DNA of 64,000 bases from Psammoneis japonica. Its lineage: Eukaryota. The position numbers were made by a program, and so were the translations under genes. The stretch spans positions 679,138 to 743,137 of the forward strand of contig QPGO01000006.1 of the NCBI GenBank assembly GCA_008632985.1, read 5' to 3'. The notes under the pieces are model-generated. The model worked only from the letters and a program-made list of their open reading frames with translations. It did no database searches and was not told the origin of the DNA. Position 1 is the first letter of the stretch. The number at the start of each line of letters is the position of its first letter. Shown one piece after another: positions 1 through 64,000 of the stretch.

Positions 1-1746
1 GGCAATCACCATGTGCTGCTGTCCATCAACTGGCAACACCCCCTGACAATTGTTTTCAGTTGCACCAGTGCTTGGCAACAAACAAAATGGGTGCAAACGG
101 GTGAGAAAATGGATGCAGGTGAGCACAATTGGGTGCAAATTGGGCACAACTGGGGTCACTGTAAAAAGCCAACAATGACCACACTCCACCAAAAAGCTTT
201 GCAGGAGTGCTCAACAGTCAAATGTGTTGCTGGGTTAAAAGACATGTGTCATTGTCAAATGCCCTGCAGCTGTTGTGAGTTGTCTTCATTCAATGGCAAA
301 TTTCACAACTGTTTGACATCATGTGCCCAAGTTGTGTCCAGTTTGTGTCCATTTTATTTGACCTTGTTTGCAGCCATTTGTGCAACAGTTGGGGGTCAGC
401 AAAAAATCCACATTGAATGTGATGCCATGCCATGATTTCAGTCAGACCCACCATTTTACATTTTTGCACACACTCTTGCACAACAGTGTCTCCCAACTTC
501 TCTCTCAACCTGACCTGCAATGCATGATGGTGCTGCATGTTGGAAGAGCTGTGTCAGCCCACAACACAGATGCTGCCACAAAGGCAAGCCACTGGCATGC
601 ATGCAACACCATCATGCACTGGCACAATTCACAAGGTCATCAGTTTTCATCACTTTCCCATTCCATTGCACTGCCACTCTTCTGTCCACAACATTGTGCA
701 ACGCATTTGTGGTGTCAGCATCATGTTTGGGGACAAAATTCCACAGCCCATCACATGCAGGGGAAATTTGATGCCAACTGCAATGGGAAAAGATCATCAT
801 TTTGTTGGCTGAGTCAATCAAGCTCAAGTGGCTTGGCAAGAATTGTTTCAATCAAATGGTTTGCATGGCTGCAGGCTGTGACACCATGGGAACTGCTGCC
901 ATTTGAGGTGTGCTTTTGCACTTCTTGTTGCCCTTGTTCTTTTGCTTCTTTGACAGAATGCTCACATGCTTCTTGCCCTCTTTTAGCTCCTCAACACAGT
1001 TGAAGAGTTTTTGGCTTGGAGCAAATGTGTGCAGTCTGATGTCACTGACCTTGAACACTGCAACCTTCTCCCAAGTCTTTTGATCTGGCATCTGGAACTC
1101 ATCCACCACTCAGTCATCACAAGTCACACAGCACTTGTTTTTTGTGTCCTGCAGGCCAAGGACATTTGCCATGGCTTTGTCCAATCCAAGCTGCATGTCT
1201 CTTAATCCTGGTGTTGTGCAGTCTTCATGCACTGGAGTGTCTCCTGCATCAGTTGACAGGTCAATCTTGATCCTTGCTGGCTGCATGTTGTGCACTGCTT
1301 TCTGACTTGCCACCATGCCAAGGGCAGAGCCATTGTCAAGGATGATCTCATCCAAATTGATGCTTGCATTGGCTTGAATCATGCTTGCCTCTGGTCTCAT
1401 GGCAACCAGCTGCATTCTGTGCCATGCAGCACCTCTGCTTCAGCCAGAACAGGCAGATTTTGATTAGATCTGGTGGTGTTGATGCTCACATTGTTGCTGT
1501 CCACCAATGAATTGTCAACATTTGTGCCTTGCATCTGTGCATGGCTCTTTGCCCTGACGTCCATTTTTTTTTTTTTCAACGTTCTTTCACCAAAATTGTC
1601 ACAAGCAATGTCACCTCTGTGGCCACATTCTGGGGACTTGTGGCCCTTCATTCCACAACAGTGACACATCAGTTTGTCACTCTGGTTGCTCTGTTGAGCA
1701 TGACTCTGGTCCTTCTGGATCTCTTGTTCAGTGTTCCAGTTGCCGC

Positions 1747-1781
<35 letters not shown>

Positions 1782-2791: not shown

Positions 2792-3346
2792 GACGTGTTC
2801 CAGTCCCAGGTGACGCACAAAACGACAATCGGATTTTGAATATAATTTATGTATGTTTTAGTGTATAAAGCATTTTAATAAAAACACTTAGACGGATTGA
2901 CTTTTATAGGCTTCTAGAGTATGGACATTTAAATAGTTTTTTGAGGGGTATTCAAATCGTCATGGGATATGTATCATAAACTTCCTCAGTAGACTCAATA
3001 CTGATTGTACGTCAGTAGATTTATACTGAGATTTTTTTGTAGGTAGAAAACCTACCAAGTAGCATCGTAGAAAGATATATTTAGGTAACATCAAAATAAC
3101 GGCAATATTTTCGCCGAAAATCTTCCGTTGTGTTACGAATCTTTTAACGCAATGAAAAACATAGATAGCACAATAACAATGACATTGCAACACTCACACG
3201 AGTCTTGTTAGTGTTGCAAAACATTTATATTTGTATAAATCTATACTTTTGGTGGTGAAAGTTCGATCGTAAGTTAGGGACCGCGCAAAAATCGCGCAAA
3301 TGTCGTTTTTGTGCACGATTTGGTTCACGTGCGGCTGGAACACGTC
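2792..3346. mobile_element. 555-bp AT-rich non-autonomous DNA transposon (MITE-like) with imperfect TIRs and a 4-bp TSD
   Basis: Left end gacgtgttccagtcccaggtga; reverse complement of the right end gacgtgttccagccgcacgtga; a subterminal gcacaaaa(a)cgaca is also shared. tcct flanks both sides (2788-2791, 3347-3350). No coding capacity. Confidence 0.8.
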
Positions 3347-4200
3347 TCCTGCAATCTCCTCTGCTGCTGATTGTGCAGGTTTTCTGTCATCTTGGCATTG
3401 GTGGTGGTCTTAAAGCAAATGAGTGCCAAATGCAGTGCTTCTAACTCTTTGGAGTGAGTGTTGAAGCAGCAAGTCAATGTTGCCAAAAGGGAGTCGAACA
3501 AGATCTCCTGTGCCACTCAACGCACTTGCCTTCTTGGCAGCCTGTTGTGTGAACCATGCAGCTGTGATGACAGGTGTCTCTCAATGCTGTCTGACAATTT
3601 TGCAAACCAAACAATGATTCACTCCAAAAAGTGAGACCAAAACACACGCAGATGGTGCTGATCTCATCGCAGAAGGTCACATCAACCAACCACATCAGGG
3701 TCAACACATCTTTCTTTTCAACATGTCTGGGTCACACAACGCGTCATCTGGGTCTCACATCTTGGTGTTCCAACACAAGAAGTGACACACCCTTCATCCC
3801 AAGGGGAAATGTTCTTTTTTTCTTTGGCTGGAAAGCCAGCTCACAAAAGAGTGTTTTTGCATGAAGCCATGTGAGCTTTGACACTGCCGACAAAGCACAC
3901 AGCAAGTTGGTCACCGAGGTGCCACTGCCACTTGTTGCTCCTTGGCAGCTGGCCATTTGATCATCACCCAGTCCATTGTGAAGCATCATGTTGACACTGG
4001 CCCCACTTGTCAGGAGTCAAAGCAGGCAAACAAGAGGTCTTGATTTCCAAATTTGAGGCATTTTTGAAAATGCAAATGTCTCAAATTAAAAAACCCAGGA
4101 ATTTCTAAAAATCTGAAATGAATTGTTTTCAAAATGACGGTTTTTTTTTTAGCAAAAATGACAGCAGTGCAGCTGTCGTTCGCACTGCTCTTAGACGAAA
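3347..4200. repeat. TpA/CpG-depleted decayed repeat, family not recognised
   Basis: Same compositional signature as 1-2790. Ends near a small hairpin agcagtgc-N11-gcactgct at about 4163-4189. Confidence 0.55.
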
Positions 4201-4375: not shown

Positions 4376-7243
4376 CTACCAAAAATTATCCTCTTCTTCT
4401 TCCAAATCTGGTTCTAATAGTTGCGCAGCAGTCGGTGCTGGGTTCGCCTCATGCTGTCCCGGTTGGTCATGATCCAGTTCTACGAATTCGTCGTGCACAA
4501 AGGACCCAGGATGAAGCGACGATGATCTCATCGCCGGGAGGGAACTAGACAAAGAAGCACCCTCTACTGATTCCAGAATCGTATCCTGAGTCGAGTTTCT
4601 GCGAAAACGTGGCTTATCCGCAACACCCGCTATGTTCTTCTTGCCGTGGCAGCTCGTGCTAGTAGTACTACTAGTGCTTGTACTTTGGATGGAACCACAG
4701 ACAGCGAGCAATCGGAGTGGGAGTTTGATGAGTAGCATGTCCATAGCATTCCATAAAAAGAGGAGCCCAGTACATGCCGTCATGCCTGCAATCGTTATGG
4801 TCAAAAAGTGTTCAATCATCCGAAAACCGACCAACATTCCCACCGCCAACAACGTATTGGATCCAATGAGAATGGAGATGGAAATCCATCCTACCTTGAC
4901 GCGATCTTCGACTTGGTGGTTTGCTTCCTTGCTGTTCTTTGTAGTAGTCGTATTCATGGTAGCACCACTGCAACTCGAATCTTCGGATGATAATTCTTCT
5001 TTTGTTGCCGCCTCCTCCCCCGCCTGGTGGACTTGACGGTTGCCCCACGAAAGATCGGAAATGCGCGCGGTGGCGTAGGCAGGAAGCCACACATAAAACC
5101 AAAAGGCAGACAATAAGGCAAAGGGGAGCGTCAGGAATATAATCTTGGCCGATCGAAACCACTGGTAGCCATGATGGGTTTTTCTAGACAAAACGATGCC
5201 GCCCACGAATGCAGCAACATAGGGCGCCACCCCAAAGAAGATTAGAATTTTCAAAAACACGGGGAGACCGCCCCATCCCAACATGACGGCAGAAGCGATT
5301 GCGACACATTGCATATAGAGCGCTGTAGCAGTGTTCAGCACGACTGCCACCGCCCATGCAATGGGATTAAATGAAGAGAAAGCATCTCCATTCGTGGCTC
5401 GAATTGAACGGGGTCGATGTACGATGAGGAACAACGCATAGATTGCCAAATACGCCGCCACAACAACAGAAGCAATCCAATGCATATCGGAATCATCATC
5501 TTCGCCCTTGGCCACTTGTTGCAGGGCTGTCGAATTCGTGCTAACTATATAGGGTGTCACGAGAATGGCAACGCACAATCCAACCGCCACAGTGGCGGCA
5601 CCCACCAACCGTACCATCACTCCGCTCAGCAGCTCGAGCGCAAGATAGGTACGGACAATGCTTTTCTTCCACCAGCTTGATGTGACTCGGCGATCCAACC
5701 TTTGTCACTACCACTGGTGTGTCTGTCTTCGCTGCTGTTGTCGCTATGATGATGCTTCTTGCTCCCACAGAAGACCCAATACGACGCAAGGAAGGCTCCG
5801 TTGATCCAACGACGACGCTGTCTTACGAGACGCGCCATTGGTTTTTCAGCGTCATAATAGAAGCACGCATCGTGTACATAGGAGACATGTGGTTTCACGG
5901 AGTCAGATAAGCCCGGTAGGTCTTTGCACTCCTCCTCCGATCGAAACGTAAGAAGGACCGGTGGAAACCGATCTTCAGCCAGTTGTACATTTCCTAAGAT
6001 AATTCGATCCATCATGTTCTTGTGAACATTAGTATCGTCCAAGGATTGGTTGCACAAGTCAAAATAGTCTGACATGACATTGCGACGATGAGGGCTGATA
6101 TTGATATCATCAGCACTATCCTTGTCGCTGCTATTGCTACTACCACTTTGGTTGGTCATGGTATCATTATACTCGGTTGTGAGTCCAAGATGTGCTGTTC
6201 GATAGAGGCAACATGGACCCGGAAGGACAGTTAAAAAGCCCATCGATTCTTGTGCCGATCGCATGGTGGCTTGCGAGATCTGCAGACATACAAAATTGTT
6301 TGATCAGCAAGCAAGCGCAATGATGTGAGTTTTGGATGGAAATGAGACACACAACATTTGCCATAGCAGTACTACCTACCTCCATGTCGTAACGCTGGAT
6401 TTGTCGCAAGGCAAATGCCGATGGATCCGAGAAGGCCTCGCCAAATCGCGAAGAGCGGTTATCCCCTTGTTTTTCGGCCGACATGACACGCATGAAGCCG
6501 GTTAAGGCCGAAACAGATGGCACCTGATCCATACGTTCAATTAACAACCGTAAACAGTGGTGATCGAAAATGATTCCACAGTCTGTGGCCCAGGCAAATT
6601 CAGCCATGGGAGCATGGGCCTGCATCCACCACATATGTGAATTGATTTTACCCTGATTGTGCCGTTTGAGAATTAGCGACAAGTGGACTTGGCCATCCTC
6701 CATCTTTGTGCGACGATCGGAACGAATTGGAGAATGTACGGCTTCAGGAATCCTCACAATGAGCGTGTTGCAGCTGCTCGTTTCGGCGCCTTCTTGCTTG
6801 GTGAGAAAGCTGTCGTCTGGACAACTGTTTGAACCTGATCCAAGTTCCAGGTCGGCTGGATCTTGATCGCCTGGAAATACAATTTGAAATTTGTCTTGGA
6901 GAAAGGCTTTCATGCTTGGTGTAATCTGTTTAGTACCATCCATGACAATGCAAACCTCGAGAATAACGGCGGAGTCTTGCTGGCTGCTGAACTGCTGCCA
7001 GTACAACGATTGCAAGGTCCGATCCAATTCTTCGTATTCTTCATTGTAACAGCAGATACAAACTGACACTACTCGATTCATTGGCACTTGATCGTCGCAC
7101 AGACCACCGCTAAAGTACCCTTGCCCTGCAATCGGTGACATCTCGGACCATCTTTCGCATTCCAACGACAAAGCGAAAGGCCCATGCTCTTTGTCTTTCT
7201 CCCGAGTGTCGGCGTACGAGGTGTAGCTTAACTGGGAGCTCAT
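4376..7243 (-). CDS. Chitin synthase (GT2 family)
   Basis: Motifs in canonical order: CCYNEE, VMDG, KRHNQGKINSH, ATDCG, LTVLPGPCCLYR, LAEDR, QRRRW, followed by several TM segments. GT-AG intron 6379-6280 joins RYDME to ISQATMRSA. One frameshift near 5680 (GWIAESH / SWWKKSIV). Confidence 0.92.
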
Positions 7244-7933
7244 TGAGTGATCGATAAAGTGATATCGACTAAAACAATGATGAATGATGGCTCCCACTTT
7301 TCAAGATAGTATCTCGTCTTTTGTGCGTGTGCTTGTTTTGATGGTCCAGGGCGACTTTTACAATACCGTATTTATGTTTCGTATCCAATCATCAGGGATC
7401 TTTTGCAATTGTGAGGTTCAAAAAGCCGGAATTTGTGTTGTTGTGGGTGACGTGTTGAGGGTTTTACGAATAGATACTACTTAGACCACATCTTGGAACG
7501 GACAAAACAGTTATGTCTACTGAAACTCGTACTGTAAAAAACTTCACGACTACAGTACATAAAGTAGATAGAGATAGAGACGATGTCCGTCCAATGATGA
7601 ATAGTCATCCCCCCAGTAAAGTAAGTAGTATGCTGTATTTAGAGAAATCGCTCGGGCAGTCATTTGTTTGTGCTGGAATCCTTTTTTATTTATTTAAAGA
7701 GTGCGAACGTGAAAATACCGTAGTCATAATTATTTTCCGTTGTGTATAAGCTACGAAGGAATCACAGTATGCCCCGTAGAAGCCGTATGCGCGGCTACGA
7801 GCACCTTCATACCTCTCGAGCCGAAACAAGCAGCAGCAGGCTCATTCTTTACGTTCAACGTACTTTTTCTTTCCATCTTCAATCTTCACCCAATTGCAAG
7901 ACCCCCCCGCCCCCCGCGTGTTCAGTGGTCACG

Positions 7934-10477
7934 ATGACGACCAGCAACGAGGAAGAAACGGCTGGTAACGGCGATACCAAAGACGTGTGGAACGAAAACG
8001 ACACCAAGTGCCAAGAGCTTGAAGAGGGCGCCTGTAACATCAGCGATCCCAAGAATGATGTAAGTGACAAAAGTACCGGCAAGAAGCAGCCCTTTTCTAC
8101 TCGTCGGTTGTGCGTCGCTGCTGTAGCATTGGTGGCAGTCATATTGCTTTGCATTGGATTGGGTGTCGGACTGTCACGGGATGGAGGGAGTCAGGATGAA
8201 AGCCAAGCGACTGTCGACGACGATGTCTGCAAGCGCAATAACGATTTGACGTCCGTACCACCATTCAACGATGATTTTCCTCCCTCCACGACGTCGCCGA
8301 TTGAATTACAAAAAACGCCCATGTTGGTTTCGATCGGATTCGATGATAATGGTCGATCGAATGGGATGGAATGGGTAATCAATGAGCTGGCCAAGAAGTG
8401 GAATACCGCGACGTCTCCGCCGTTGCAGTTCACGTTCTTTCAGACCACCACGTATGCTACCGACGTGCATTACGAGGAACCCGTTAACGTACGTCGTGCG
8501 TGGAGAGCTGCCTATGAACAAGGACATGAAATAGCGCTCCACACTCACACACATCCACATGGTTCCGAGTTTTCTACGGATCAGTGGGGAGACGAGTTCA
8601 AAATGTGTCACGAGACACTCACCCGAAGCTGGGAGGAAGGAGGGCTCGGCGTGGACCCCAAGGATATTTTGGGGTGGCGAGCTCCCTACCTGGAATCGAA
8701 TGCAGAAATGTTTGAAGTACTCCATGAAAATGGTGTATGGTATGATAGTTCCATCTACGATGGATTTCAGCCAGAACAAGATGGACGCAGCCATCAGTTC
8801 CCTTACACTACAAACCATGGATCAAAGCCCGCCGGATTTCCTATTAACCGATCCGGAATCTGGGAATTACCGTTACATGCATTGATCATCCCCCCCGACG
8901 ATGTAGCGGAGAAATACAATTTTGTTCCGGGCCTGAGACAACGATCAGCAGCAGCCATAAAGGTCACGAGTTTAGGTGCGTTTACCGGTTCTAGCAACAA
9001 TGGATTGCTATGACACTATGCTCATTTTTTTTTCGTCACATATTCAATTCTCGTCTTCCAGACTGGAACTTTTTTGCCGAATACGCCATGACAGGGCCTG
9101 AATTTGTGGCTACGCTCAAATACAATCTGGATCTACGGCTTGAGGGCAATCGAGCACCGTTTGTGTTTGGGGCTCACTCGGAGTATTATGCCACCGACAT
9201 TCCAAAACTTTCCAGCGACGAGATGTTCTGCGGAAGTAGCTGGACCGACGCAAATACATGCAAGACCCCATGTCCGGGTGGAACCGATTCTGAATGTCCC
9301 GACGGAGAATCCTGCTTTGCAAGTATCACGGTGGGTGTGAACCCAGTTCCAATACATCTTTCTGTGGAACGAGCTGGGCCGACGCAAATACATGCAAGAC
9401 CCCATGTCCGGGTGGAACCGATTCTGAATGCCCCGACGGAGAATCCTGCTTTGCAGATGTCACGGTGGGGTGTGAACCCAGTTCCAATACACTTTCTGTG
9501 GAACGAGCTGGGCCGACGCAAATACATGCAAGACCCCATGTCAGGGTGGAACCGATTCTGAATGCCCCGACGGAGAATCCTGCTTTGCAGATGTCACGGT
9601 GGGGTGTGAACCCAGTTCCAATACACTTTTCTGTGGAACGAGCTGGGCCGACGCAAATACATGCAAGACCCCATGTCAGGGTGGAACCGATTCTGAATGC
9701 CCCGACGGAGAATCCTGCTTTGCAGATGTCACGGTGGGGTGTGAACCCAGTTCCAATACATCTTTCTGTGGAACGAGCTGGGCCGACGCAAATACATGCA
9801 AGACCCCATGTCCGGGTGGAACCGATTCTGAATGCCCCGACGGGGAATCCTGCTTTGCAGATGTCACGGTGGGGTGTGAACCCAGTTCCAATACACTTTT
9901 CTGTGGAACGAGCTGGGCCGACGCAAACACATGCAAGACCCCATGTCCGAGAGGAACCGATTCTGAATGTCCCGACGGAGAATCCTGCTTTGCAGATGTC
10001 ACGGTGGGGTGTGAACGTAGGCTCAATACATTTTTCTGTGGAACGAGCTGGGTCGACGCAAATACATGCAAGACCCCATGTCCGGGAGTAACCGATTCTG
10101 AATGCCCCGACGGAGAATCCTGCTTTTCAGACGTCACGGTGGGATGTGATCTCAGTTCCAATACATTTTTCTGTGGAACGAGCTGGGCGGACGCAAATAC
10201 ATGCAAGACCCCATGTCCGAGAGTAAGCGATTCTGAATGCCCCGACGGAGAATCCTGCTTTTCACATGTCACGGCGGGGTGCGGGAACGAACCCGATCCC
10301 CTATGTAGCAATGGCAGAGTTCGTGACGGAGTGTTCCCCTGTAGTACCGCAGAAGAGCGCCGTGCGGCGATGGAAGCGTTCCTTGCGTATGCACTCTCCA
10401 AGGAGGAGGTTCGAGTAGTTCCAATGAGAAGTGTTATGGACTGGATGCGCGATCCTGTTCCGCTCCAGTGTCTTTAA
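7934..10477 (+). CDS. Membrane-anchored polysaccharide (chitin-type, CE4/NodB-like) deacetylase with eight inserted Cys-rich modules
   Basis: N-terminal TM (LCVAAVALVAVILLCIGLGVGL). CE4 motifs IGFDD, HEIALHTHTH, GWRAPYL, WYDSS, IWELP, NRAPFVFGAH. Intron 8976-9061 gives KVTSLDWNFF. Single-base slips in the first repeats break the frame. Confidence 0.88.
9225..10285 (+). repeat. Coding tandem array, 8 x 135 bp (45 aa: FCGTSWADANTCKTPCPGGTDSECPDGESCFADVTVGCEPSSNT)
   Basis: Units recur at about 9225, 9360, 9494, 9629, 9764, 9899, 10034 and 10169. They are nearly identical, with six Cys per unit. Confidence 0.95.
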
Positions 10478-11099: not shown

Positions 11100-12928
11100 T
11101 TAGATGCGCGACATACACGACGAGCGCGAGAAGTCGGCACAAACACGTCGCTGACGAAACCAGCACCCTCATGTTGCACTGGTCATCTGGTCATTGTTTT
11201 CATTCTCATTGTCTCACTTGCATCTCCCACACTGTGGCTTCCTCTTGTCAAGAAGGCTGCCTTTTTTTAGAGGATTGCGATGCACAGGCCAATGTGTGTT
11301 TTTTGTATGGTGTGAGTGAGCTTGTGCAAATGAGCAAGAGACAAAATGGTTTCTGCAGAAAATTGACTGGCTTTGGTTGCTGCAGCCCCAGCACCCGACC
11401 CACCACTTCTGCACTGCACCCTCATTTTTGCCTCTACACCAAAGTCATGCTGGCAGCAGCAAAAAAATGAGAAACATCAGCAGCCAAGCTGTCTTGCACC
11501 TCTCCATTGCCATCATGCGGGAGCGTCTTCAGGGCAGAGTGTTGAGCTTCTAGATGCCACACTTGGCATTCTGTCAAACTGTGCCACCTCACAACATGAT
11601 TCAGAAATGCTGCTTGAAAAACACTCCATGGTGCTTGGATTTCATCTGCCAAAGACCTGCAGAGCAGCAAAAGACAAGAGGGAACAAGAGGAGCATGATG
11701 AACCATGCTGTCTTGCATTTTCATTGCTGCTCTGCTGCAGTGGCTGGCTTTCAAGGGTGTGGTGCTGAGTTTTTTGGCACTGTGTTTGGCACTCCGTCTT
11801 GTGTGTTGCCAACTCACATGCTTTAAAAAACAGGCTTTGCACCCCACTGTGGTTGAAAACCAAGAGTCAAGTGCCCAACCTTCATGGTCTTCTTTTTTTT
11901 CAGCAAAGCTCTGCCACCAGCCACTGAGTTTCCTCTTCATGCCAAGTCATTGTGTCATGGAAAAAGAACCACACAGAGAACAAACACCAGGTCTGCAGAG
12001 CAACATTTCCTGGTTGTTGCTGCTGCCAGGTGCAATCACAGCATGAGAAGGGGGGGTTGGGGGGGAGAGTCAGACTCAACTAAAAGGAGTGAATGCACTG
12101 ATGTTGTGCAGGAAAAGTCAAAAAAGCACACCTTGAAAGTGCACTTTAAGTGTGCTCAAGCATGTTTGTGACTCTTGCACAGTGTTCTGCGGGGTGCTGG
12201 TTCACAGGCATTTTGTGCCAGCACACTGCTGCACACAATCTACAGCATTGCCATGCATGATGGGCTGATGATTTGCGTGTGAACAAACATGCAGAATTTG
12301 TGCCACAACAGCTGTTGGTTGACTTGCACATGATGGCATTTTTCACAAATTTTCATGTCATGCATGTGACAGAGTCAAAAAGAAAAAAAATGCAGGTTGT
12401 GACAAAAGTGAAAACCAAAAAATGTCGTTGAGCTGTGCGTGGGGGGAGATTGGGGAAGACTGCAGCAGCTGAGGTCAGCACCTTGTCAAATCAACTTTGC
12501 ATTGCTGGGCAGCTCCCAGTTGGCTGTTTTCAACTTTTTTTGGGGAAATGCTCAATCGCCTTCATGGAAATGTGTGGAAAATGTGCCAAGAACCTCCAAC
12601 CTTGTCTTTGGGGGTGCTCTGTTTGCAATGAAATGGAGCCAAATGACAAGCTCCATCTAGAAAGTGGGCAAATCTGAGAGGGTTAAAATGGCAGAGAAAG
12701 ACACTGTGAGCCAGAGAAGGGCATTGCAAGAAGATTTGCAAATGTGCAGCACTGGGCACTGATCGACAAGACCAAACACCACAGGGCTGTGGTGTTTGGC
12801 ATCAAAGGTGCTCTCAGCCTGCCATTTTTGTTTGGGAGAGAGTTGGGCAGGTTGGTGTGAAAATGCAGAAAGGAGTTGGTGAAGTGTTGCTAAAAATGTG
12901 AGCCAAGCCAACAATGTTGAGACAACGC
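11100..12928. repeat. TpA/CpG-depleted decayed sequence; left part of the island into which the copia element inserted
   Basis: Compositional signature. Continues at 20043-20800 on the other side of the TSD. Confidence 0.6.
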
Positions 12929-13206
12929 TGACAGAAATTGAAGGCAAATGGCAAGAATCCAAACAATGACTCCTTGCTGCTGTCTAAATGGCAGATGAGT
13001 CTCCGCTCAGAGACGGTCACAGGAGCCAAAAGATGTGTGAGTCGGCACAATCGGGCTGCTGTTGTCATTCTTGTGAGCCGTGTGGCTCGAAAGCAAACTG
13101 CGTCGCGTGCGCACGCATGGAACTAAAGAGCACACAAAACTGTGCGCGGCAAACTAAACAGCGCGCGACATTTTGTGCGCACCCAAATCCTGTTCAAATC
13201 CTGTCA
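12929..13206 (-). repeat. 3' LTR (278 bp)
   Basis: Colinear with 19765-20042; TG...CA termini. Confidence 0.95.
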
Positions 13207-19764: not shown

Positions 19765-20042
19765 TGACAGAAATTGAAGGCAAATGGCAAGAATTCAAAC
19801 AATGACTCCTTGCTGCTGTCTAAACAGCAGATGAGTCTCCGCTCAGAGACCATTGCAGGAGCCGAAAGACGTGCAAGTTGGTGCAATCGGGCTGCTGTTG
19901 TTGTTCTTGTGAGCCGTGTGGCTCGAAAGCAAACTGCATCGCGCGCGCACGTGCGGAACTAAAGAGAACACAAAACTGTGCGCGGCAAACTAAACAGCGC
20001 GAGACATTTCGCGCGCACCCAAATCCTGTTCAAATCCTGTCA
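19765..20042 (-). repeat. 5' LTR (278 bp)
   Basis: Colinear with 12929-13206. On the minus strand it is followed by the candidate PBS gattaacagtc. Confidence 0.95.
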
Positions 20043-20254
20043 AACGCAGTGCATCACTCTGATGCTGCTGTTCTGTGGAACAACAATTTTCAGCAAATGA
20101 AGCTCCTCCCTGGCTTGTTTCTGCTCTGGGTCAACTGCAATGACACAATTTTTTCAAATCTGAAAATGGAGAAGCTTGTCACAAGTTTTTGTGGGCTGCT
20201 TGGCCCATTTTTTGTGGCGCCAAAGAGGCATCAAAACACAGCTGTCAGCATGCT

Positions 20255-47550: not shown

Positions 47551-47790
47551 TCAAAAGGGCGGGAAAATGGAACATTGAAGTTGTACAGGTCTGCATTAAA
47601 AAATTTCTTAGCTCTTCCTGATCGATCCCGCCGATTTCAGATTTGGCTTTGGAATTGGATTTCAGATGGTTTCAGATTGCCGACAAGTTGGGTGCACCAC
47701 ATATTCATGGCATTGGTCGAGCTGACTGTGTCCTGTGCAGCGATCACAACACGGCCCGACAAGGTGACAAGGGAATCATCGTCGTACACC

Positions 47791-50579: not shown

Positions 50580-50800
50580 AATGCTGGCTCCAAGGGCAGC
50601 ATCCACGTGGTCCCGTCACCCACGCCTGCAAGACAGAAGAAACAAGCATCGCTGGGAACAACCCCCCTCCTCAGATGCACAAGGTCATCAAAGTCTGCTT
50701 TTCCTTCCATGATGAGACAGCGGAAGCTTCCAAAATGTTCAAAGTGGCCTTTGAACAAACGTTTCATCTAGATGGATTTCGTTGTCGAATCCTGAGATCT
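50580..50800 (+). pseudogene. Mutated fragment paralogous to the gene at 53505
   Basis: QMHKVIKVCFSFHDETAEASKMFKVAFEQTFHLD versus QMRMLERYFSIFDGTPDAAAKFKAAFEETFHTD. Both copies have a CAA-rich 5' leader. Confidence 0.75.
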
Positions 50801-52784: not shown

Positions 52785-53215
52785 CAGCCATGGATTAGAG
52801 AATGGAGCACAGCCATGAAATGGGTCTTGTGTTGATGTTGTCATCTGGGCAATCTCGGTGTCGAGAACACTTCATCGTGCAGCGAGTCGCGTGTCTTGAA
52901 TCCCGCATGACCCACTCGACTCAACATTTTTGGCAGAGTTGGCTAGACTTTGATCCCCGCTAGAGCCACAAAACACACAAGATGTGAGCATTGTCAGTCT
53001 CCTGACCTTCAAAACAATGTCTTGCGAGGGTGGATTGGGTGTGCATTGTTCATGGTGTCGGGCATTTGAAGATGGAGCTGACATTTCGCGGAGCACCTAT
53101 AACTAACGCAGCCCTCTACTTGCGACACCAAAAGTTATCGGGAACTTTGTATTAGCATGATGTTAGTCGGCTGGAAATGCATTTGGTAAAAAATGGGGGG
53201 GTTGTGATTACACGT
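52785..53215 (+). repeat. Dispersed repeat, copy 2 (homologous to 20255-20775)
   Basis: Colinear similarity; this copy retains more TpA toward its right end. Confidence 0.85.
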
Positions 53216-53504
53216 GGAAGCATTCCACAGCCGCGCGCCAAGTTGAAATGATGACGCAAACATGACGTCGAGTCACGTTTCGAAGACAGCGCGGCCGCCA
53301 AAAAACTGACAACGGCAAAGCGTGATCAAAGTCGCTCACTTTTTGGAGTGATGTCCGTCGCGAGAAGTTGAGAAGTGACCATGGAGACGACTTGCCCGTC
53401 GTTTCGCACGATCTCTTTTCTGCCAGCTCATTCTTTCATCCCATAAAATTCAATTGAGAACAAAAAACAAAATCAACAACAACAAAACAAACAACCTTAC
53501 AATC

Positions 53505-54772
53505 ATGGTTCATGTCCAAAACAACAACAACAGTGCCTACGTTAGCACTTCCTCTACCACCGAGAAGCTGTCCAAAGACACCATCACCAATCAGATGCGC
53601 ATGCTTGAACGCTACTTTTCCATCTTTGATGGTACACCCGATGCTGCTGCGAAATTCAAGGCGGCCTTTGAAGAAACGTTTCACACGGATCTAGTCGTTG
53701 AAAATCCTGGAGGAAAAGATCTTTCGTATGACGCTACCATGGCTTTGATTCAGTCCATGTGCAACCAAGGCTTCTACGCCGACTTGGAGAGCATTGTCGA
53801 TAACGGTGATGGATCAGCGACAATGACCATTAACAATCACATTCCTGGTGGTCCAGAGAATGATGTGACTCGACAGGTTGTGGGCTTTAAGGACGAAAAG
53901 GTTGTGAGTGTCCGTCCGATGGATCCTGATACCGCCCAGTTTGGTGCGTTGGTCAAGCGAGCCTTGGTTTTTTCAAACAAAGCATTGCTGAAAGACATGC
54001 CGCCATGATTGCCTGTTTTGATGGCTCTCCCGACGCGTTTGCCAAGGCTGAACCAATTATCAATGAAATCGTAGACAAGGACGTTGTCATTCAGCACGGA
54101 AACAAAACAATGGGCTTTGACGATTTTCTAACGTGGGCCAAGACGTTTTCCGATGAACGAAATGTTGCAAAGCTTGAAAGCACGACAAGCAATGAGAATG
54201 AGATTTGTGTAACGATTCGAAACAAGGTGAACGGGATCGACCAAGGTGCTGTGGAACAAAAGGGCGTCATTCGGAATGGCAAGATTGTGTATTGGTCTGC
54301 CGCGACCCCGGAGAATGAAGCAGGCTTTGAGAATCTGGTATCGAGTGTTGCATCCAAAACAGAGGGAATGCTGGGAAATATCCAGCGTCTTTGCGACTAC
54401 TTTTCAGCGTTTGATGGGTCTCCAGATGCCTGGGACCGAGTCGAACCTCATATTGAACGAGTTCTTGCCCGAGACTTTGTTTTGGAAGATGACACGGGTT
54501 CTGTACAGATGCGGTACGACGAAGTTATTGCCATGATTCGCGACAAGTATATTCCCAACGGATGCTATCCAGTGCTCGAATCGTTTAAAGACAACAAAGA
54601 TGGTAGCCTCACGATTATTGTCAAGAACCACCTCCCTGGAGAAGATGGTAATGTGTCTCGTAAAATTGCGCACTATGGGGATGATGATCGCATCCATCGC
54701 CTAGTTTCGACCAGTGACTTTGTTGACATGTGCAATCGCATTCGGGCCTTACCAAGCAACGACAATGCCTAA
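53505..54772 (+). CDS. Hypothetical protein with three tandem homologous ~130-aa domains (NTF2/SnoaL-like fold suspected)
   Basis: FDG[TS]PDA motif three times, each followed by a helix and beta strands. One frameshift near 53995. Confidence 0.75.
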
Positions 54773-56189: not shown

Positions 56190-59100
56190 ATGACGTCTCA
56201 ATCACGCTTATTGCGTGCCGCGGCAAGCCGTGCTTCCATGCTGAAACGAAGCAGCGCACGCAGCAGAGTTTTGTTTAGCACTCAACCGGCTGCGTTTGAA
56301 GAGCACGAATCCGAGTCATTTCTTACCGGCACTTCTTCCATCTATGCCGAGCAGCAGTTTGAGCTCTATCAACGTGATCCCAATAGCGTACACGAAAGTT
56401 GGCGTACCTACTTTGATAACTTACAGAGCGGTGTGGCCTATGAGGAATCGCTCTTTAGTTCTCCCACCGCTGTGCCTCCTTCGCGAGCGAAAAAAGCAAC
56501 GGCAGTGGCTGTAAGTGTCTCTCCAGTCGGCATATGATGTTCTATGATGCGTCCTATGAACTTGTCTCTCACTATCCTATGTCTACATGTCATTCTCAGG
56601 ATTCGACTCCGTCTGACTCGCTCGGTATTTCGCACATGATTCGTGCGTACCAAGTCAATGGCCATTCTGCAGCCAATCTCGATCCGCTCGGCTTGCACTC
56701 CAAACTGTCCTTTCCGGGCCGTCCCAGCAACACGCGTGATGAATTGCCGGGTGGATTTCCCGTCGAACTGACTCCGGAATTTCATGGTTTTACCGACAAG
56801 ACTATGACAGACGTCTCAACCTCAAAGGCCGGAGTACGGGTGGAAATAAGGGCTATCTCGAAGAATTGGCATCGGCACCAGGAAAAGTGACGCTCCGGAA
56901 CATTGTAGACACGCTCAGGACAACCTATTGCGGGACACTGGGAGTCGAGTATATGCATATCGGCGACACGGTCAAGTGCAATTGGATTCGAGAACGCGTC
57001 GAGAATCCCCGGTGGCACTACTACGATAAGGAGAAAAAGCAGCACATTTTTGAACGTCTCTGCTTTGCCGATACGTTTGAGAATTTCTTGGCACAAAAGT
57101 TCAATACCACGAAGCGATTTGGATTGGATGGTGGCGAAGCGATTGTTCCCGCACTCAAGGATGGCATTGATCGAGCTTCGGAATTGGGAGCACACTCCTT
57201 CATCATTGGCATGCCCCATCGGGGACGGCTCAACGTGCTGGCCAATGTCATGCGCAAGCCCATGCCTTTGATTTTTGCCGAATTTCAGGGCAAACACTTT
57301 TCTTTGGACGATCACACCAAGGCGAACAACAAGTGGGGAACCAGTGGGGATGTCAAGTACCACTTGGGGAGCAGCATGGATCGGACCTATCCTGACGGAC
57401 GAACGATTCATTTGAGTTTGGTGGCCAATCCGTCACACCTCGAGTGTGTCAATCCAGTCGTGGTTGGTAAAACTAGAGCTAAGCAGTATTACTGTGGTAA
57501 TCGGTAAGTGGTGGGATGGTGTCCTTTTTTGTCTGGGTGCTTTAGCAGAGTCCCTCACAATCTTTTTTCAGCCCTGAAGACGTTCAGAACTGCGTCCCCA
57601 TTTTGCTTCATGGCGATGCCGCCTTTGCGGGTCAGGGTGTCGTCTATGAGACCATGCAAATGTCCAAGGTGTCTGACTTTGATACGGGCGGCACCATTCA
57701 CGTTGTTGTCAACAACCAGATTGGTTTCACCACCAACCCACTTAACTCACGCAGTACGCCCTATTGCAGCGATTTGGGCAAGGCCTTCAATTGTCCCATT
57801 TTTCATTGCAATGGCGACGATCCCCTCGCGGTGTCTACCGCGTTGGAAACAGCCGTCGAATGGCGTCACGAATGGGGCACGGATGTGATTATTGACATGG
57901 TGTGCTACCGACGCAATGGGCACAACGAGTTGGATCAACCTGCCTTTACGCAACCCAAGCTCTACAAGGAAATCAGTCGTCATCCGACGACTCTTCAAAT
58001 CTTTGAAAAGCGCTTGATCCAGGAAGGAACGCTCACCAAGGAGGAATGTGATGAGATTCGCCAGTTCACTCTCGACAGTTACGAGGCTGACTTTGAAGCC
58101 AGCAAGACTTATGAGAAGAAAGAAACCGACTGGCTTAGTAGTCGTTGGTCCGGATTCAAAAGTCCCAAACAACAGAGTCGTGTCCGTCAGACGGGTGTGG
58201 AGCCGGAAATTTTGCGTGATGTTGGAATCAAAGCGGGCACCGTCCCCGAAGGATTCAAGCTTCACCGTCAAATGGCGAAAATCTTCAAGGCTCGTCGTGA
58301 AATGGCGGAACGAGGCGACGGCATTGATTGGGGCACAGCCGAAGCCATGGCGTTTGGTAGCTTGTTGTTGGAAGGCAATCATGTACGCATCACGGGACAA
58401 GATGTTCAGCGTGGAACCTTTTCTCACCGTCATGCCGTGGTTAAGGATCAACAAACCGAAGACGAGTACGTGCCACTCAACAACTTGACCAAGATTCTCG
58501 ATCCTTCCTCGCCGATTGAAGAAATGGCCAAACCCGACAGTCAAGCGGGATTTACCTGTAGAAACTCGATTCTCTCCGAATTTGGTGTCTTGGGCTTTGA
58601 GTTGGGCTACAGTCTGGAAAACCCCAATGCTCTCATTTTGTGGGAGGCCCAATTTGGTGACTTTGTCAACGGCGCCCAAACTATTATTGATCAGTTCATT
58701 AGTGCGGGCGAAGACAAGTGGCTCCGTCAAGCCGGTCTCGTCATGCTTTTGCCGCACGGCTATGACGGACAGGGTGCCGAGCACTCGTCGTGCCGTGTTG
58801 AGCGCTTCTTGCAGCAGGTAGATGAAGATCCGCATCACATTCCCGCCATGGCGCGAAACGACCGCATGCAAATCCAAAACTGCAACTGGCAAGTCGTCAA
58901 TTGCACCACGCCCGCCAACTACTTTCATTGTCTCCGTCGTCAGATTCATCGGGATTTCCGCAAACCACTCGTTGTGATTTCACCCAAGAATTTGTTGCGA
59001 AACAAGCGCTGTGTGTCGAGTCTGGAAGAAATGGGACCCGACACGTCCTTTAAGCGTGTCTTGCACGAGACGGATGAAGAAATCTTCAACAATCCGGATG

Positions 59101-59569
59101 ATGTCAAGGTAAGGCATGAAAGGTAGTGAAGCAAGATGTGCTGTTGAGGCCTCGTCATGTGTGTAATTAAACTGCTTCCCTCCACGTGTATTGTTAGACT
59201 CTTGTCTTTTGCTCGGGTCAGATTTACTACGAGCTTTTGGTGGAGCGTGAGAAGCAAGAACGTAAGGATGTTGCCTTGATTCGGTTGGAGCAGATTGCAC
59301 CCTTCGCCTTTGATCAGGTTGCCAAAGATTGCAAGTACTACAAGAATGCCGAGATTGTGTGGGCACAGCAGGAACCGAAAAACATGGGAGCTTATGCGTA
59401 TGTCAATCCTAGGATCATGACGGCCACCCGCGAACTGAACGAAGACGAAAAGCGCGCTCGTTACGTTGGGCGGGCCGTGAGCGCTGCGCCAGCCACGGGT
59501 ATCGCCAAGGTCCATCAGGAGGAGTACCAAGCCATTCTGGAAGGTGTGTTTGGCAAAATAGCAGAGTAG
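56190..59569 (+). CDS. OGDH: 2-oxoglutarate dehydrogenase E1 component, mitochondrial
   Basis: IRAYQVNGH, KRFGLDGGE, GMPHRGRLN, GDVKYHLG, HGDAAFAGQG, NNQIGFTT, GQDVQRGTFSHRH, WEAQFGDF, LPHGYDGQGAEHSS, QEPKNMG. Introns at about 56511-56599, 57504-57571 and 59109-59197. One base missing near 56798. Confidence 0.97.
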
Positions 59570-59939: not shown

Positions 59940-62900
59940 ATTATGACGAATGTCGTTGCTTCTGTTTGAATCGATTTTGTGATGAGCCAATTATTTCGAA
60001 GAGAAAATCTGAGTCTGGGTTGTAGTCGTGAGATGCGACCAGAATGACGTTGAGTCGTGACTCTCCCTCTCAACCGAGAGAGCTTGCCAGCCCATAAGAG
60101 CCTTTCTACCCGCACGGAACGCATCGGTCCGTAGTCCCTTCGTGAACTGATCGGCTAGTTGCTCTAGAGTGCTGACAGGTTGGATGTCGATCTCCAATTG
60201 TTCGACTTTAGTCCTAAACCAGTGGTGCGGGATGCCGATGTGTTTGGTTCGCGGAGACAACTTGGGCATGCGTGCGAACTTGAGGCACGCGGAGTCACCC
60301 TTGCACACAACGGATGCAGGCAGGACATTCTGCTCTACAGGCGAGTCATCGGTGCCTTGGTTTGCGAGCTCAAAAGCCTTGGAGTGAGTCGTGATGGGAT
60401 TTTGGCGGTCAGACTTTCCGAGTGCGTGGTGGTTGAGTTCCTTGAGAACTTCACGAACAGGGATGAGATCGCGCATGGCTTGAGAAAGTGCGACATGTTC
60501 CGCTTCCACAGTCGACAATGCCACAAGAGTCCGCAGCTTGGACACCCAGACAAGCGGGCAGCCGGCGCAGCAGATGAGGCATCCAGTCCTGGACTTGACA
60601 GAAACTGGGTCTTGACCATCTTCCACACCAAATGACCCCGCGAAGTCAGAACCGACACAACAATCAACTCAATGATCTTGCGCAGGCTTGAGAATGAGAC
60701 CTTCAGCAGCAGTTGCTTTGAGGTGTCGGAGCATCCGCTTCACTGCAGCAGCGTGGGACGCTCGGGGTGCAAACGAGAATCGAGCCACTTGATGTGTGGC
60801 ACATGCAATGTCTGGCCGGCTGTTCGCTGCCAAGTGCATCAACATTCCAACAACTGAGCAACAATCGCAGGGTTCATCAAAAGGCAGGCCGTCCATGTCG
60901 GCACCAACAGCCGCAGGCAGAGCTGGAGCAGATGCTCCATTGCAATCCTGCATCTGTGCGGCACGCAGGACCTTGTCAATTAGACCGGGTTGAGTGAGCA
61001 GAAATCGACCCTCGGAGAGCTTTTTGATCTTGATGCCGAGAAAGTCACCGACTTCTCCTTCGTCTCTCAGTTCAAATGCGTGGCGATGTTCGTCGTTGGA
61101 GACTCCTAACTTGTGAATTTCTGCTTCCAGAGCTTCAGCTGAAACTCCAGCAAATGCGGTGTCGTCGACGTGCACCACACACATCACACCCTCTTTGAAA
61201 TGCAAACAGGGATCTATGGCTGAAGGCACCCATCCGCGCTCGGTTAAACCAGCTCGTAACTTCTCGCAGAAGCCCTTGGGAGACTGTTTTGGGCCGCACA
61301 GTCCTTTCAAAAGTTTGAGAACCATGTTGAGTCCCGACCTCGGCGCAAATCCCTTCGGCGGTGTTGCACAAACTTCCTCGGCGACATCAGCTTGGCAAAA
61401 GGCTGTGGCACAGTCCACCTGACGTGCAGTCCATCCCTCCTTTAATGCCGCAGTGAGCATGAGTCGGATGCTGGACCATTGCACAACCGGCGTGCAGGTT
61501 TCGAAGCAGTCGACTCCTTCTTTCTGTAAATCACCGCGGACGCAGCATCGGGCCTCACACTTGAGAGGGGTTCCATCTGGGAGTCTCTTGAGCTTGAGTG
61601 CCCATGCACCTGGAAGCACATTCATGTGCGGCTGACGCTCGACTGCTTTCCAGGCTCGACGATGTGTGAGTGCGTTGACTTCAATTTTCATCGCCTCAAT
61701 CCATTCGTCGGCGTCCGGACCTTTCAGAGCATTGTGCAACGAAGGCATGTCAGGGTCCTTGGTTTTCTTGCTAGCTGCGCAGGCTCGTGGATCGCCGACA
61801 TTGATGGCGCCACTGTCCAAATCCGTCTCGAGAGTCGCCAGATGTGCCAGTTGAGCCTCGTGTCCGATCGGCAGTGGCATTTCCTTGACGGAGCTGAGGT
61901 GGACCTCATCTGCAAACTTGGCAGAGTTGAGCTGTCCCTTGGTTGACCGTGAAGACTGTCGCAGCCCTGGTGCTCCCTCTGGATTCGTCATGGGAGGTGT
62001 CTCAAACTGGGGGAGGAGCTGTTGGTTCCGTCAGCACTTTGGGTGGCGGAAGTTCGTCACTGTCTTGAGGTTCAGGTGGCTGAATTGGTGTAGAGTCCAC
62101 AGAGTCTGCAGGAGTTTGAGTTGCAGGTGGGGCTGGTGGCGTTGGCTGCTGAGTCGCAGGTGCGACTCGATCGGCAACGTCGTCGCGAGAAGTGGGTGAA
62201 TCCGGCACAGCAATCGATGGAGCAGGCTCAAAATGGCCGCAAACACAATGTTGCTCTGGCCAGTTCTCGCTCTTTACGTTGACGCTCTGGAGGGGCAAGC
62301 CACTCATCGTGTGAATGAACTGCTTGATCCTTCTCCAGAGGGATGCATGTCGATTGGTTGAGGCACAAGTGTTCCCAGTGATCAGGTGGATCCGTCTCCC
62401 TCTTGATTGATGGCACGGTTGTGAAGAGATCGTCAAAGACCACATGATGCTGAGGAGTGACACTGCCAGTTTGTAGATTGAGGACCAAAGGAACCTCACT
62501 GGAATGGATGGCACTGAGTCCCACGAACAAAGCGCGATGAGTGCGAGGTTCCCAACGCGGGAGTTTCGTTCTGGAAGCAAGGGTCGGATCAAGTGCGTGT
62601 GCTGGACATCCCCATGTGTGAATGTCTCGCAGTCGATGTCTTGGCACTGTCGAGCTGGTGAAAATGTCCGCTGGGCAATGTCCCTTGGAATTTGGGGTGA
62701 CATTGTAGATGTGCGTGGCACAAGAAACAGCCATGGGCCATGGGGAGCTGTCAACTCCCCCTTTCCAGTGGATTGATGCATGAAGCAACATCGCTCTTGC
62801 CGTGTTGGAGATGCTTCGGATGCCCCGCTCTGCGACGCCGTTCTGATGATGGGCGTTGGTTCCACAAAAACAGAGACGTTGTCTGTGGTCTCATGCACGT

Positions 62901-64000
62901 TGTGCAAAAGCGTTGGCCTTGAAAGCACCACTGTCGGCAAGAAATTCTTGGACGATGACACCGTGGTCCAAAGCATGTTTCTCAAACGCTTGCTTCGCTC
63001 GAATCGTCTCAACAGCGGAGAAACCAAGTTGGTGCTCGACCTGGACACATCCAGAGGCATGGTCGACAAAGATGCAACCGCCCTTGAATTGCTTGGATGT
63101 GGCTTTGCCACAGGAGTCGAAGGTTCGGCCCAAAAGGCGCGACTCAAAATGATCAACGCTGACAGCCTGACCCGGTCGAAGATGGTCAGCTCGAAGGGCC
63201 CCGTTGCGTTCAGGGACTGTCGACTTGTGAGTGGATCCAAGGGAGCGTCTGTGACCTTTAGCACACTCACATGCCTCGCATCTTGGGTGGTCACACTTCG
63301 CTGCGGACTTGAAACGGTTCGAAAGGAACGGAACTGCGCGGAGAAGTGCTTGGACGCGACCAAAGTTCAAATGGCCGAAACGGGCGTGCATTTCGATGAG
63401 AAGCTTCTGGCCTGCCGTGAGGTTTTGATTCTCCTCGTCAAGGATCTGTAGATTCACTTGTGGAGTGGCAGATGCGCCCTTGGTCATCAACGCAACAGGT
63501 GAGTGGCTTGATTGATGATGTGGCATGACCAACTTGCCTGTCCCGTCAACATGTAAACGGAAAGTGGTTTCATCGCCCTCACACTTCCCACGCACCCCCT
63601 TCTCTTCGTTGAAGAGGCATTGAGGCGACAGCAGGCGTTGACGGGCTCCAGGGACTGGTGTGCCATGGTGTTCAGTTGGATGGCAGCGCCACTCGGCGTT
63701 GTGAACACCCACGCAACCGGACCGGTGCCCTGGATGGTTAGACCGTTGGCAATCCCATTGATCTGCAAGGGTTTCTTGGGAACAGTCATGGGCCCCGTAA
63801 AATCATCTTTGTCGGGGGCAACAGCCAGCGTGGCACCAGTGTCCATGACGACCGTGAGAGCCTCGTCCAACAGGCCGATGAGTGCCTGCAGATCGGATGC
63901 AAGGAGGTCGGCTTGAGATTGTCCGGTGAGTAGTTGGATGGTGGAGGCATTGTAGACGACGGGTCTAACACTTGCTTCCTCCAACAGTTCCACAGGATCT
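59940..64000 (-). mobile_element. Second Ty1/copia retrotransposon (different lineage), cut by the window end, inactivated
   Basis: VMDTGA (PR), HARFGH...CEAC (IN zinc finger), VSVDHFES (IN), KRLPDG, VVHVDD (RT), SRTG...SKL..ALSTVEAE...ADQFTK (RH). PPT-like gagagggag near 60062-60072. 3' LTR limits not resolved. Confidence 0.93.

Follow-up and report, generated by a model that had tools for sequence, protein, structure and literature searches.

A natural DNA mutator that converts A:T to G:C pairs at a defined dinucleotide is a very rare thing: our searches turned up a single report, a preprint of 2026 on a rhizarian alga, Bigelowiella natans, in whose mutation-accumulation lines the integrated genomes of nucleocytoplasmic large DNA viruses (NCLDV) and virophages undergo TpA -> TpG/CpA hypermutation (Mettrop et al., bioRxiv 10.64898/2026.01.13.699255). 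Here we describe the same signature in a stretch of 64,000 nucleotides (hereafter, the window) from Psammoneis japonica (assembly GCA_008632985.1, contig QPGO01000006.1, positions 679,138 to 743,137 of the forward strand), where six sharply bounded islands, two of which harbour Ty1/copia retrotransposons with long terminal repeats (LTRs), are nearly devoid of TpA. We argue that a DNA-level mutator would have struck integrated DNA of transposon origin, probably silenced, in the genome of this diatom, changing A:T to G:C almost only at TpA and on either strand, such that TA became TG or CA nearly to saturation. That a TpA-specific A:T -> G:C mutator has acted on mobile DNA here is, in our opinion, highly probable.

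According to the main text of the preprint on B. natans, 231 of the 302 nuclear single-nucleotide mutations fell in the integrated NCLDV and virophage DNA, and 230 of these 231 were A->G or T->C, all of them, as the authors state, on TpA; the process was active in 11 of the 15 lines, at a rate of about 6e-7. A de novo rate about 1000-fold above background can be taken as a hallmark of this kind. The text of the preprint also describes 124 clusters that are depleted of TpA and enriched in CpA and TpG, an enrichment of reverse transcriptase and DDE domains in the TpA-poor coding sequences, and the targeting of a single-copy viral insert. As a candidate enzyme, its authors put forward a DNA adenine deaminase of the ADAT2 type, and they cite work in which ADAT2 of amphioxus and of Trypanosoma acts on DNA (10.64898/2026.01.13.699255).

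The locus considered here shares with the published B. natans case the confinement of A:T -> G:C change to TpA, the two products, TpG and CpA, the sharply local action, in situ, on foreign or mobile regions and, also, the same adenine-deaminase hypothesis. Unlike the rhizarian B. natans, with its integrated viruses, the host here is a stramenopile, and the recognisable targets are Copia LTR retrotransposons and old repeats; furthermore, whereas a rho of 0.45 is given for the NCLDV region, the islands described here are near saturation (TpA observed/expected ratio, O/E, of 0.04-0.14). The evidence also differs in kind, being comparative here and coming from mutation-accumulation lines there. 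The main text of the preprint mentions neither diatoms nor stramenopiles, and the words "trinucleotide" and "context" are absent from it, whereas a flank preference, with TAT/ATA the most sensitive and YTAR (Y, pyrimidine; R, purine) resistant, is seen here. We consider the present case to belong to the B. natans kind and not to be categorically new; what is new is the lineage, the target class, the saturated end state and the flank rule. An earlier reading of the window from its letters alone (hereafter, the sequence-only reading) knew of no such system in diatoms; the idea that nothing like it has been described is overtaken by the preprint, which contains both the signature and the ADAT-like hypothesis (10.64898/2026.01.13.699255). 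For diatoms, a literature search that did not extend to subscription journals or to some 1.7 million PMC articles produced no report, the only papers found being those on repeat-induced point mutation (RIP) and the B. natans preprint.

RIP, known from ascomycete fungi, is likewise a hypermutation by transitions that works on DNA after integration and is biased to a dinucleotide; it, too, wrecks transposons and leaves behind islands of altered composition. However, RIP changes C to T (CpA -> TpA), creates TpA along with stop codons and requires both duplication and a sexual cycle, whereas here TpA is destroyed and no stops can be created. APOBEC3 (C->U in cDNA) and ADAR (A->I in double-stranded RNA) are comparable as deaminase-type editing directed against mobile or viral nucleic acids, but they act before integration, on single-stranded cDNA or RNA, and mark one strand, whereas here both strands of integrated DNA are affected. 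TadA/ADAT2 enzymes and the TadA-derived adenine base editors would yield A->I, which is read as G. The natural substrate of TadA/ADAT2 is an A preceded by U (U33-A34 in the anticodon loop); these enzymes are not known to edit DNA at TpA naturally. Finally, CpG decay, that is, deamination of 5-methylcytosine, has also occurred in the islands (CpG O/E 0.06-0.80) and also yields TpG and CpA, but cannot remove TpA.

TpA-depleted islands

In the window as a whole, the O/E of TpA is 0.39, and those of CpA and TpG are 1.38 and 1.37, respectively. The sequence-only reading had attributed the deficit to six sharply bounded islands, with about seven TpA in the first 2790 bp, and counting at the boundaries it drew bears this out. 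The block 1-2790 contains exactly 7 TpA (O/E 0.04) and 9 CpG (O/E 0.06); there are 6 TpA in 3350-4200 (O/E 0.09; CpG 0.28), 53 in 11100-20800 (0.10), 17 in 42700-47550 (0.05; CpG 0.16), 29 in 49560-53250 (0.12; CpG 0.54) and 28 in 60050-64000 (0.14), compared to 1486 in the 38,165 bp outside the islands (0.56). When the islands are pooled, TpA stands at 0.09, CpA at 1.72 versus 1.17 outside and TpG at 1.58 versus 1.21 (the two products range from 1.4 to 2.2 across single blocks), which is the direction opposite to that of RIP, and CpG at 0.52 versus 0.99. The longest gaps free of TA span 1376, 1622 and 1166 bp.

A two-state segmentation, run on the share of TA among the TA, TG and CA steps, recovers the same six blocks with stepwise edges (3-2838, 3286-4083, 11116-20787, 43013-48220, 49555-53095 and 60220-63994), the TA share being 1.0-3.0% in these blocks, whereas the normal segments that separate them have 20-50%. 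Four short low-TpA stretches within host genes or a tandem repeat were flagged as well (9391-10013, 53211-53535, 57108-57466 and 58146-59106), which we regard as ordinary coding or repeat composition. The islands and their parts are the following (ORF, open reading frame; MITE, miniature inverted-repeat transposable element):

1-2791, no strand assigned: island 1, an unclassified old repeat with hardly any TpA or CpG; 0 of 10 ORFs with a Pfam match
2792-3346, no strand assigned: MITE-like insertion of normal TpA content, an internal unmutated control, with inverted termini and TCCT flanks
3347-4083, no strand assigned: island 2, island 1 resumed past the MITE; 2 TpA in 181 TA+TG+CA steps (3286-4083)
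11116-12928, no strand assigned: left flank of island 3, older TpA- and CpG-poor DNA that hosts the Copia insertion; 0 of 6 ORFs with a Pfam match
12929-20042, minus strand: hypermutated, complete Ty1/copia LTR retrotransposon (island 3), with RVT_2, LTRs and a target-site duplication
20043-20787, no strand assigned: right flank of island 3, the same older TpA-poor DNA; 70% identity to 52813-53069
43013-47550 (low-TpA tract to about 48220 by segmentation), no strand assigned: island 4, an unclassified decayed repeat; 0 of 23 ORFs with a Pfam match
49555-53095, no strand assigned: island 5, unclassified TpA-poor DNA delineated by segmentation; 0 of 15 ORFs with a Pfam match
60220-64000, minus strand: island 6, a second, unrelated Ty1/copia element with RVT_2, truncated by the window end

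The element of island 3 is a Ty1/copia retrotransposon: it encodes a reverse transcriptase (RT; RVT_2 match with E of 6.4e-17), is bounded by LTRs of 278 bp (12929-13206 and 19765-20042) with TG...CA ends (TGACAG...CTGTCA), and is flanked by a perfect 5-bp target-site duplication, AACGC, at 12924-12928 and 20043-20047; a tblastn search with a relative (P0121) matches 16423-13265 at 62%. In island 6, the RVT_2 match (E of 9.1e-29) lies within 60669-62030; the window ends inside this element, and its LTR pair is beyond view. A tblastn search with seven Copia relatives gave matches only in islands 3 and 6 (the matches listed are those of two queries), and none of the 58 ORFs of at least 90 aa in islands 1, 2, 4 and 5 and the flanks of island 3 had a Pfam match at E <=0.01. 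Island 4 contains an internal direct duplication of about 2.3 kb, in which 45417-46188 pairs with 43122-43856 at 67% identity, with 29 TG/CA double differences.

Islands 1 and 2 are a single tract interrupted by the MITE-like element. This AT-rich element, about 555 bp long, ends in inverted repeats of 22 nt (GACGTGTTCCAG...; 2792-2813 and 3325-3346), with TCCT on both sides, and inside it TA makes up a share of 0.505 of the TA+TG+CA steps (2841-3276), with a TpA O/E of 0.68-0.90 and a CpG O/E of about 1.0. Given its AT-richness and very high summed depth in a public read run (see below), it looks like a member of a young, abundant family of non-autonomous DNA transposons.

Across elements, the loss of TpA is uncoupled from CpG decay. 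In the Copia elements, a TpA O/E of 0.10-0.14 is combined with a CpG O/E of 0.66-0.80, whereas in the older DNA at 11116-12928, TpA is at 0.05-0.12 and CpG, far poorer than in the Copia element, at 0.07-0.17. Among metagenome Copia loci, there are CpG-depleted relatives (L061, L040, L007, L001 and L056; CpG O/E 0.05-0.24) that keep TpA (0.49-0.70), so that CpG decay does not bring about the loss of TpA; the hosts of these elements appear to methylate them without a TpA process. The sequence-only reading was, then, right to separate the two.

Direction of the change

Was TpA lost from these elements, or did they never have it? Tyrosine is encoded by TAY codons only, and TpA-free DNA cannot encode it. 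In the ORFs of the islands, Tyr accounts for 0-0.4% of the residues, and Cys and His are raised, compared to 1.9-4.7% Tyr in six host ORFs. The canonical catalytic motif of the Copia RT, YVDD, appears as CVDD in island 3 and, in island 6, where Tyr is at 0%, as HVDD. In an alignment of the island 3 polyprotein with 59 relatives, the 16 columns with at least 80% Tyr contain, in the window copy, Cys in 8 cases, His in 4, Phe in 2, Trp in 1 and Tyr in 1; in the looser set of 25 columns with at least 60% Tyr, the counts are Cys 14, His 6, Phe 2, Trp 1 and Tyr 2. For the RT of island 6, compared with 135 relatives, the five conserved Tyr columns contain His (3) and Cys (2), with no Tyr left. Thus, Cys or His has replaced Tyr at 12 of 16 conserved columns in island 3 and at all five in island 6.

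The other conserved residues of the island 3 element have been retained: Lys in 12 of 12 cases, Asn in 14 of 14, Gln in 7 of 7, His in 9 of 9, Pro in 19 of 19 and Gly in 31 of 32. The conserved non-Tyr classes are retained at 87-100%, with the exceptions of Arg (17/24) and Val (11/16), the Arg losses, mostly to Cys and His, being CpG decay (CGN -> TGN/CAN). The excess of A->G, as the sequence-only reading had supposed, is limited to TpA: Lys, Asn, Gln and His are fully retained, and Tyr in 1 of 16 columns. These replacements show that the change ran from TA to TG/CA. The low-TpA state is evidently not native to the family: the median Tyr content of 120 relatives of the island 3 protein is 4.1%, compared to 0.4% in the window copy, and among 80 metagenome loci related to this protein, 78 have a TpA O/E of 0.49-1.0, one 0.36 and one (L068) 0.02. 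The possibility that the relatives are natively free of TpA, raised by the sequence-only reading against itself, is not supported, the relatives having normal TpA and Tyr.

The codon logic of this change is simple: TA -> TG/CA never turns a sense codon into a stop. TAY becomes TGY or CAY, NTA becomes NTG or NCA, a TA across a codon boundary (NNT-ANN) becomes NNT-GNN or NNC-ANN, and the stops themselves change, TAA to TGA or CAA and TAG to TGG or CAG, such that all Tyr codons and all TAA and TAG stops are removed. Since TAA and TAG are lost without new stops, long ORFs appear in all frames of the islands. The inactivation of the elements is by missense change, the opposite of RIP, and the loss of TA-containing signals probably contributes as well.

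Timing and strands

The two LTRs of a retrotransposon are identical at integration. Over the 279 compared columns, the LTRs of the island 3 element now differ at 25 positions: six adjacent doubles in which TG faces CA (12 positions), eight CpG versus TpG/CpA differences, three transversions and two other transitions. CpG is retained in both LTRs at 13 sites and TpA at three, all CTAAA; in these 279 columns, there is no site with TA in one LTR and TG or CA in the other. The same local context has ended as TG in the one LTR and as CA in its partner. With eight single CpG losses and 13 CpG retained, only about 0.3-0.4 CpG doubles of opposite direction would be expected, so that most of the six doubles should be ancestral TpA sites that mutated independently, once per strand. 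On this evidence, the change occurred in the integrated DNA, after integration and on both strands; editing prior to integration is at odds with the six TG/CA doubles and with the hits on both strands.

No strand-coordinated runs of TG as against CA are found (z of -0.7 to +1.4 in eight blocks), and the interleaving of the two products argues against a single processive pass along one strand as well as against RNA editing. Given that TpA is saturated and that only five other differences separate the LTRs, the mutation rate at TpA would be at least about 100-fold above background.

Flanking bases

Survival of TpA depends on the neighbouring bases. It was measured as the density of surviving TpA in the two Copia elements compared to 67 loci of relatives with normal composition and amounts to 9.3% overall; by context, it is as follows:

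CTAA/TTAG: 31%
TTAA: 21%
CTAC/GTAG: 19%
GTAA/TTAC: 12%
CTAG: 11%
GTAC: 6%
ATAG/CTAT: 2.7%
ATAA/TTAT: 1.2%
ATAC/GTAT: 1.1%
ATAT: 0%

The order is the same when the non-island DNA of the window itself is used for comparison. The preferred target is thus an A between two Ts, and the least favoured one is Y-TA-R: TAT sites (ATA on the other strand) would have been lost first, with YTAR holding out longest. In addition, CpG adjoins 10 of 58 surviving TpA here, versus 2427 of 22402 in the relatives, an effect too weak to interpret.

Chemistry of the change and alternative explanations

In our view, the signature, its polarity, its origin after integration, the action on both strands and the dependence on context are demonstrated here, whereas the enzyme, the targeting cue and a role in defence are inferences. 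The most likely chemistry, which we put forward tentatively, is that adenine in DNA is deaminated to hypoxanthine; the enzyme might be of the TadA/ADAT type, or another one with the deaminase fold, recruited to silent chromatin. Taken by itself, adenine deamination is a possibility that we advance with some hesitation; the combined explanation, a mutator that likely acts by deamination and is of the same kind as that of B. natans, appears reasonably probable.

Among the alternatives, chemistry on the thymine side deserves attention before the others, although we consider it unlikely. A JBP/TET-like dioxygenase or another enzyme could modify the T of TpA in silent DNA, for instance to 5-hydroxymethyluracil (5hmU) or 5-formyluracil, and mispairing with G or error-prone repair would then yield the same TG and CA products. 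5-Formyluracil does mispair with G, and in dinoflagellates 5hmU is enriched at TpA. Moreover, TpA is palindromic, T->C on one strand being A->G on the other, and all the results described here are symmetric between the two routes. However, no modified base is known from these data, and the three 2OG-Fe(II) oxygenases encoded in the window match 2OG-FeII_Oxy_3, one of them with a ShK domain, and none has a match to the JBP/TET family. The authors of the B. natans study, in the main text of the preprint, favour adenine deamination (10.64898/2026.01.13.699255).

A passive regional mutability seems more doubtful still. Here, a spontaneous or UV-induced lesion at TpA would remain unrepaired in heterochromatin, or would be bypassed by a polymerase of the Pol eta type at WA (W, A or T), with no dedicated mutator involved. 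The islands are derived from transposable elements (TEs), and the CpG depletion of several of them is in keeping with methylation and silencing over a long time. The WA motif, however, does not fit: the ApA O/E is 1.23 inside the islands versus 1.11 outside, nearly unchanged, as is that of ApT (0.86 versus 0.97), so that the WA->WG candidate mentioned in the sequence-only reading is disfavoured. Furthermore, untranscribed, AT-rich intergenic DNA beside genes keeps a TpA O/E of 0.86-1.07 (7251-7750 and 35251-35750), the MITE inside a depleted tract is intact, and TpA is saturated in LTRs that differ at five other positions in 279 columns; in B. natans, according to the main text, the process was on in just 11 of 15 lines (10.64898/2026.01.13.699255).

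RNA editing fixed by reverse transcription, in which an ADAR- or ADAT-like enzyme would edit UA in the retrotransposon RNA for the product to be copied into new insertions, is very improbable. Two of the islands are indeed retrotransposons, and ADAR favours a U 5' of the edited A (cited in 10.64898/2026.01.13.699255). This route is contradicted by the six TG/CA doubles between LTRs that were identical at integration, and both strands were hit almost equally; the older flanks and islands 1, 2, 4 and 5 lack a retroelement signature, and an RT or integrase devoid of Tyr could hardly propagate. The B. natans targets, as presented in the main text, are integrated DNA viruses that mutate in situ (10.64898/2026.01.13.699255).

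An artefact, namely a modified base in TE DNA that is systematically misread such that TG and CA are really TA, is scarcely credible. The public read run used here, X1, may be from the same sample as the assembly, and its sequencing platform is not on record. Contigs from this run reproduce island 1 with one other letter at 1-1041 and none at 1805-2819, and one contig covers 10889-12952, that is, the left flank of island 3, with three other letters; the word depth on these island stretches, about 56-75, is the same as on unique genes (about 56), and the contigs extend up to 315 kb. In addition, sequencing had no difficulty with TpA in the MITE that interrupts the tract, identical contexts appear as TG in one LTR but as CA in its partner, and the signature is present in unrelated public sequences (L068, P0154, P0355, P0330 and P0368). 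In B. natans, according to the main text, the events were called from Illumina reads (10.64898/2026.01.13.699255). At position 311 in island 1, the window has TG where the X1 contig has TA at full depth, possibly a recent or allelic TA/TG difference.

Least plausible of all is a native composition or adaptive purge, with TE families avoiding TpA while active: some Tyr-free relatives do have very long ORFs, such as the 2061 aa of P0355, but these are expected anyway, since TA -> TG/CA removes TAA and TAG and creates no in-frame stop, and conserved tyrosines, which are impossible without TpA and include that of the RT catalytic motif, have been replaced in the islands while relatives have normal TpA and Tyr.

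What is being targeted?

The sequence-only reading presented the process as a "reverse RIP", a mutator acting on silenced or repeated DNA. TpA-specific A:T -> G:C change on transposon-derived DNA is what the Tyr loss reveals; the targeting by repetition fares worse. The Copia family of island 3 is clearly abundant, with a summed word depth in X1 of 37,000-143,000 compared to about 56 for unique DNA (summed depth not being copy number). However, where RIP is triggered by duplication, here the MITE of high depth is untouched, and the older flanks of island 3, along with parts of the islands, are at single-copy depth; in B. natans, as mentioned above, a single-copy insert was targeted. The untouched MITE implies that the process has stopped or is episodic, or else that only some repeats are its targets. 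As a cue, copy number as such seems less likely than silencing or foreignness, or than an episode of activity predating the MITE.

Several observations weigh against the mutator that we propose, or at least against its generality. The MITE-like element, with a summed depth of about 18,000 in X1, sits unmutated inside islands 1 and 2. When the window copy was compared with other copies of the Copia family in X1, 17 of the 40 best-supported of 451 difference rows were private CpG decay of the window copy, whereas only three had TA in other copies where the window has TG or CA, and one was the reverse, so that independent mutation of each copy is not demonstrated family-wide. The signature is seen in only one or two of the 80 related metagenome loci. 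The ratio of Cys to His at Tyr codons varies by copy, being 14:6 in the window, 2:8 in L068 and 5:7 in P0154. The surviving sites do not tell on which strand the flank rule operates, since TpA is palindromic and a Y at +1 mirrors an R at -2, so that the two rules look alike. The product contexts lean weakly to TAY -> TGY in the old islands, where the inside/outside O/E ratios of the four -2Y/+1Y product tetramers, CTGC, CTGT, TTGT and TTGC, are 2.19-1.58 compared to 1.13-1.34 for the mirror products, and are mixed in the Copia elements. The genes of the 64-kb window include no deaminase gene, and what we see is an end state, with no de novo events.

The signature in other public sequences

The signature is not confined to this window. 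The metagenome locus L068 has 3 TpA in 2766 bp, and at 14 conserved Tyr columns it has His in 8 cases, Phe in 3, Cys in 2 and Tyr in 1, with the other residues retained. Another relative, P0154, with 0.88% Tyr, also shows the signature, and 4 of 139 representative relatives of the island 6 RT have less than 1% Tyr, one of them being an ORF of 2061 aa with 0.05% Tyr. Two contigs of about 8.4 kb from the European Nucleotide Archive (ENA), P0355 and P0395, contain ORFs for Copia polyproteins of 2061 aa with a single tyrosine (0.05%), which appear to be fully hypermutated and still uninterrupted; such long ORFs are expected because the mutator cannot create stop codons.

The diatom case extends the signature to a second lineage at the supergroup level and to a group that ranks among the most important marine primary producers, and adds LTR retrotransposons to the targets. 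The flank preference is a constraint for any candidate enzyme, and LTR pairs provide natural clocks for measuring the rate. In practical terms, long Tyr-free ORFs will mislead the annotation of TEs and genes in such genomes, and dating of TEs by LTR divergence must leave out TpA-derived sites. Should the enzyme prove to be a true natural DNA adenine deaminase, it would be of interest both for the biology of genome defence and for base-editing technology. One might go further and imagine that diatoms possess a dedicated editing defence, guided by chromatin or small RNAs, that deaminates adenine at TpA, with T-A-T preferred, in newly silenced transposons and viruses, erasing Tyr codons, TATA-like and AATAAA-like signals and TAA/TAG codons without nonsense; such a defence would be homologous to that of B. 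natans and part of an ancient immunity, common to stramenopiles, alveolates and rhizarians (SAR), that relies on a natural DNA adenine deaminase. We consider this extended scenario doubtful.

Host and neighbouring genes

The genes outside the islands point to a diatom host, not to Bigelowiella, in agreement with the guess of the sequence-only reading. The ORF for the E1 subunit of 2-oxoglutarate dehydrogenase (57546-59126) has 80-82% identity to proteins of Grammatophora oceanica, Bacillariaceae sp. and Cylindrotheca fusiformis, compared to 61% to a protein of Triparma; the genes for chitin synthase, polysaccharide deacetylase, a kinase, PhyH, SDR and three 2OG-Fe(II) oxygenases also fit a diatom.

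The chitin synthase gene (4379-7300, minus strand) is arranged head to head with the polysaccharide (chitin) deacetylase gene (7730-9010, plus strand), which suggests a chitin/chitosan module. A tandem array follows at 9226-10281, with a period of 135 bp; its copies, about 7.8 in number and 86-94% identical, lie within long ORFs of either strand (e.g. 9476-10474, plus strand); it is, probably, a repeat-containing protein encoded downstream of the deacetylase gene. The three oxygenase genes (34757-35779, 36243-37637 and 47479-49281) are paralogues of the prolyl-hydroxylase type, with 69% DNA identity between 34813-35726 and 36629-37542. The first 250 or so codons of the ORF at 47479-49281 lie across TpA-poor DNA and are possibly a spurious extension.

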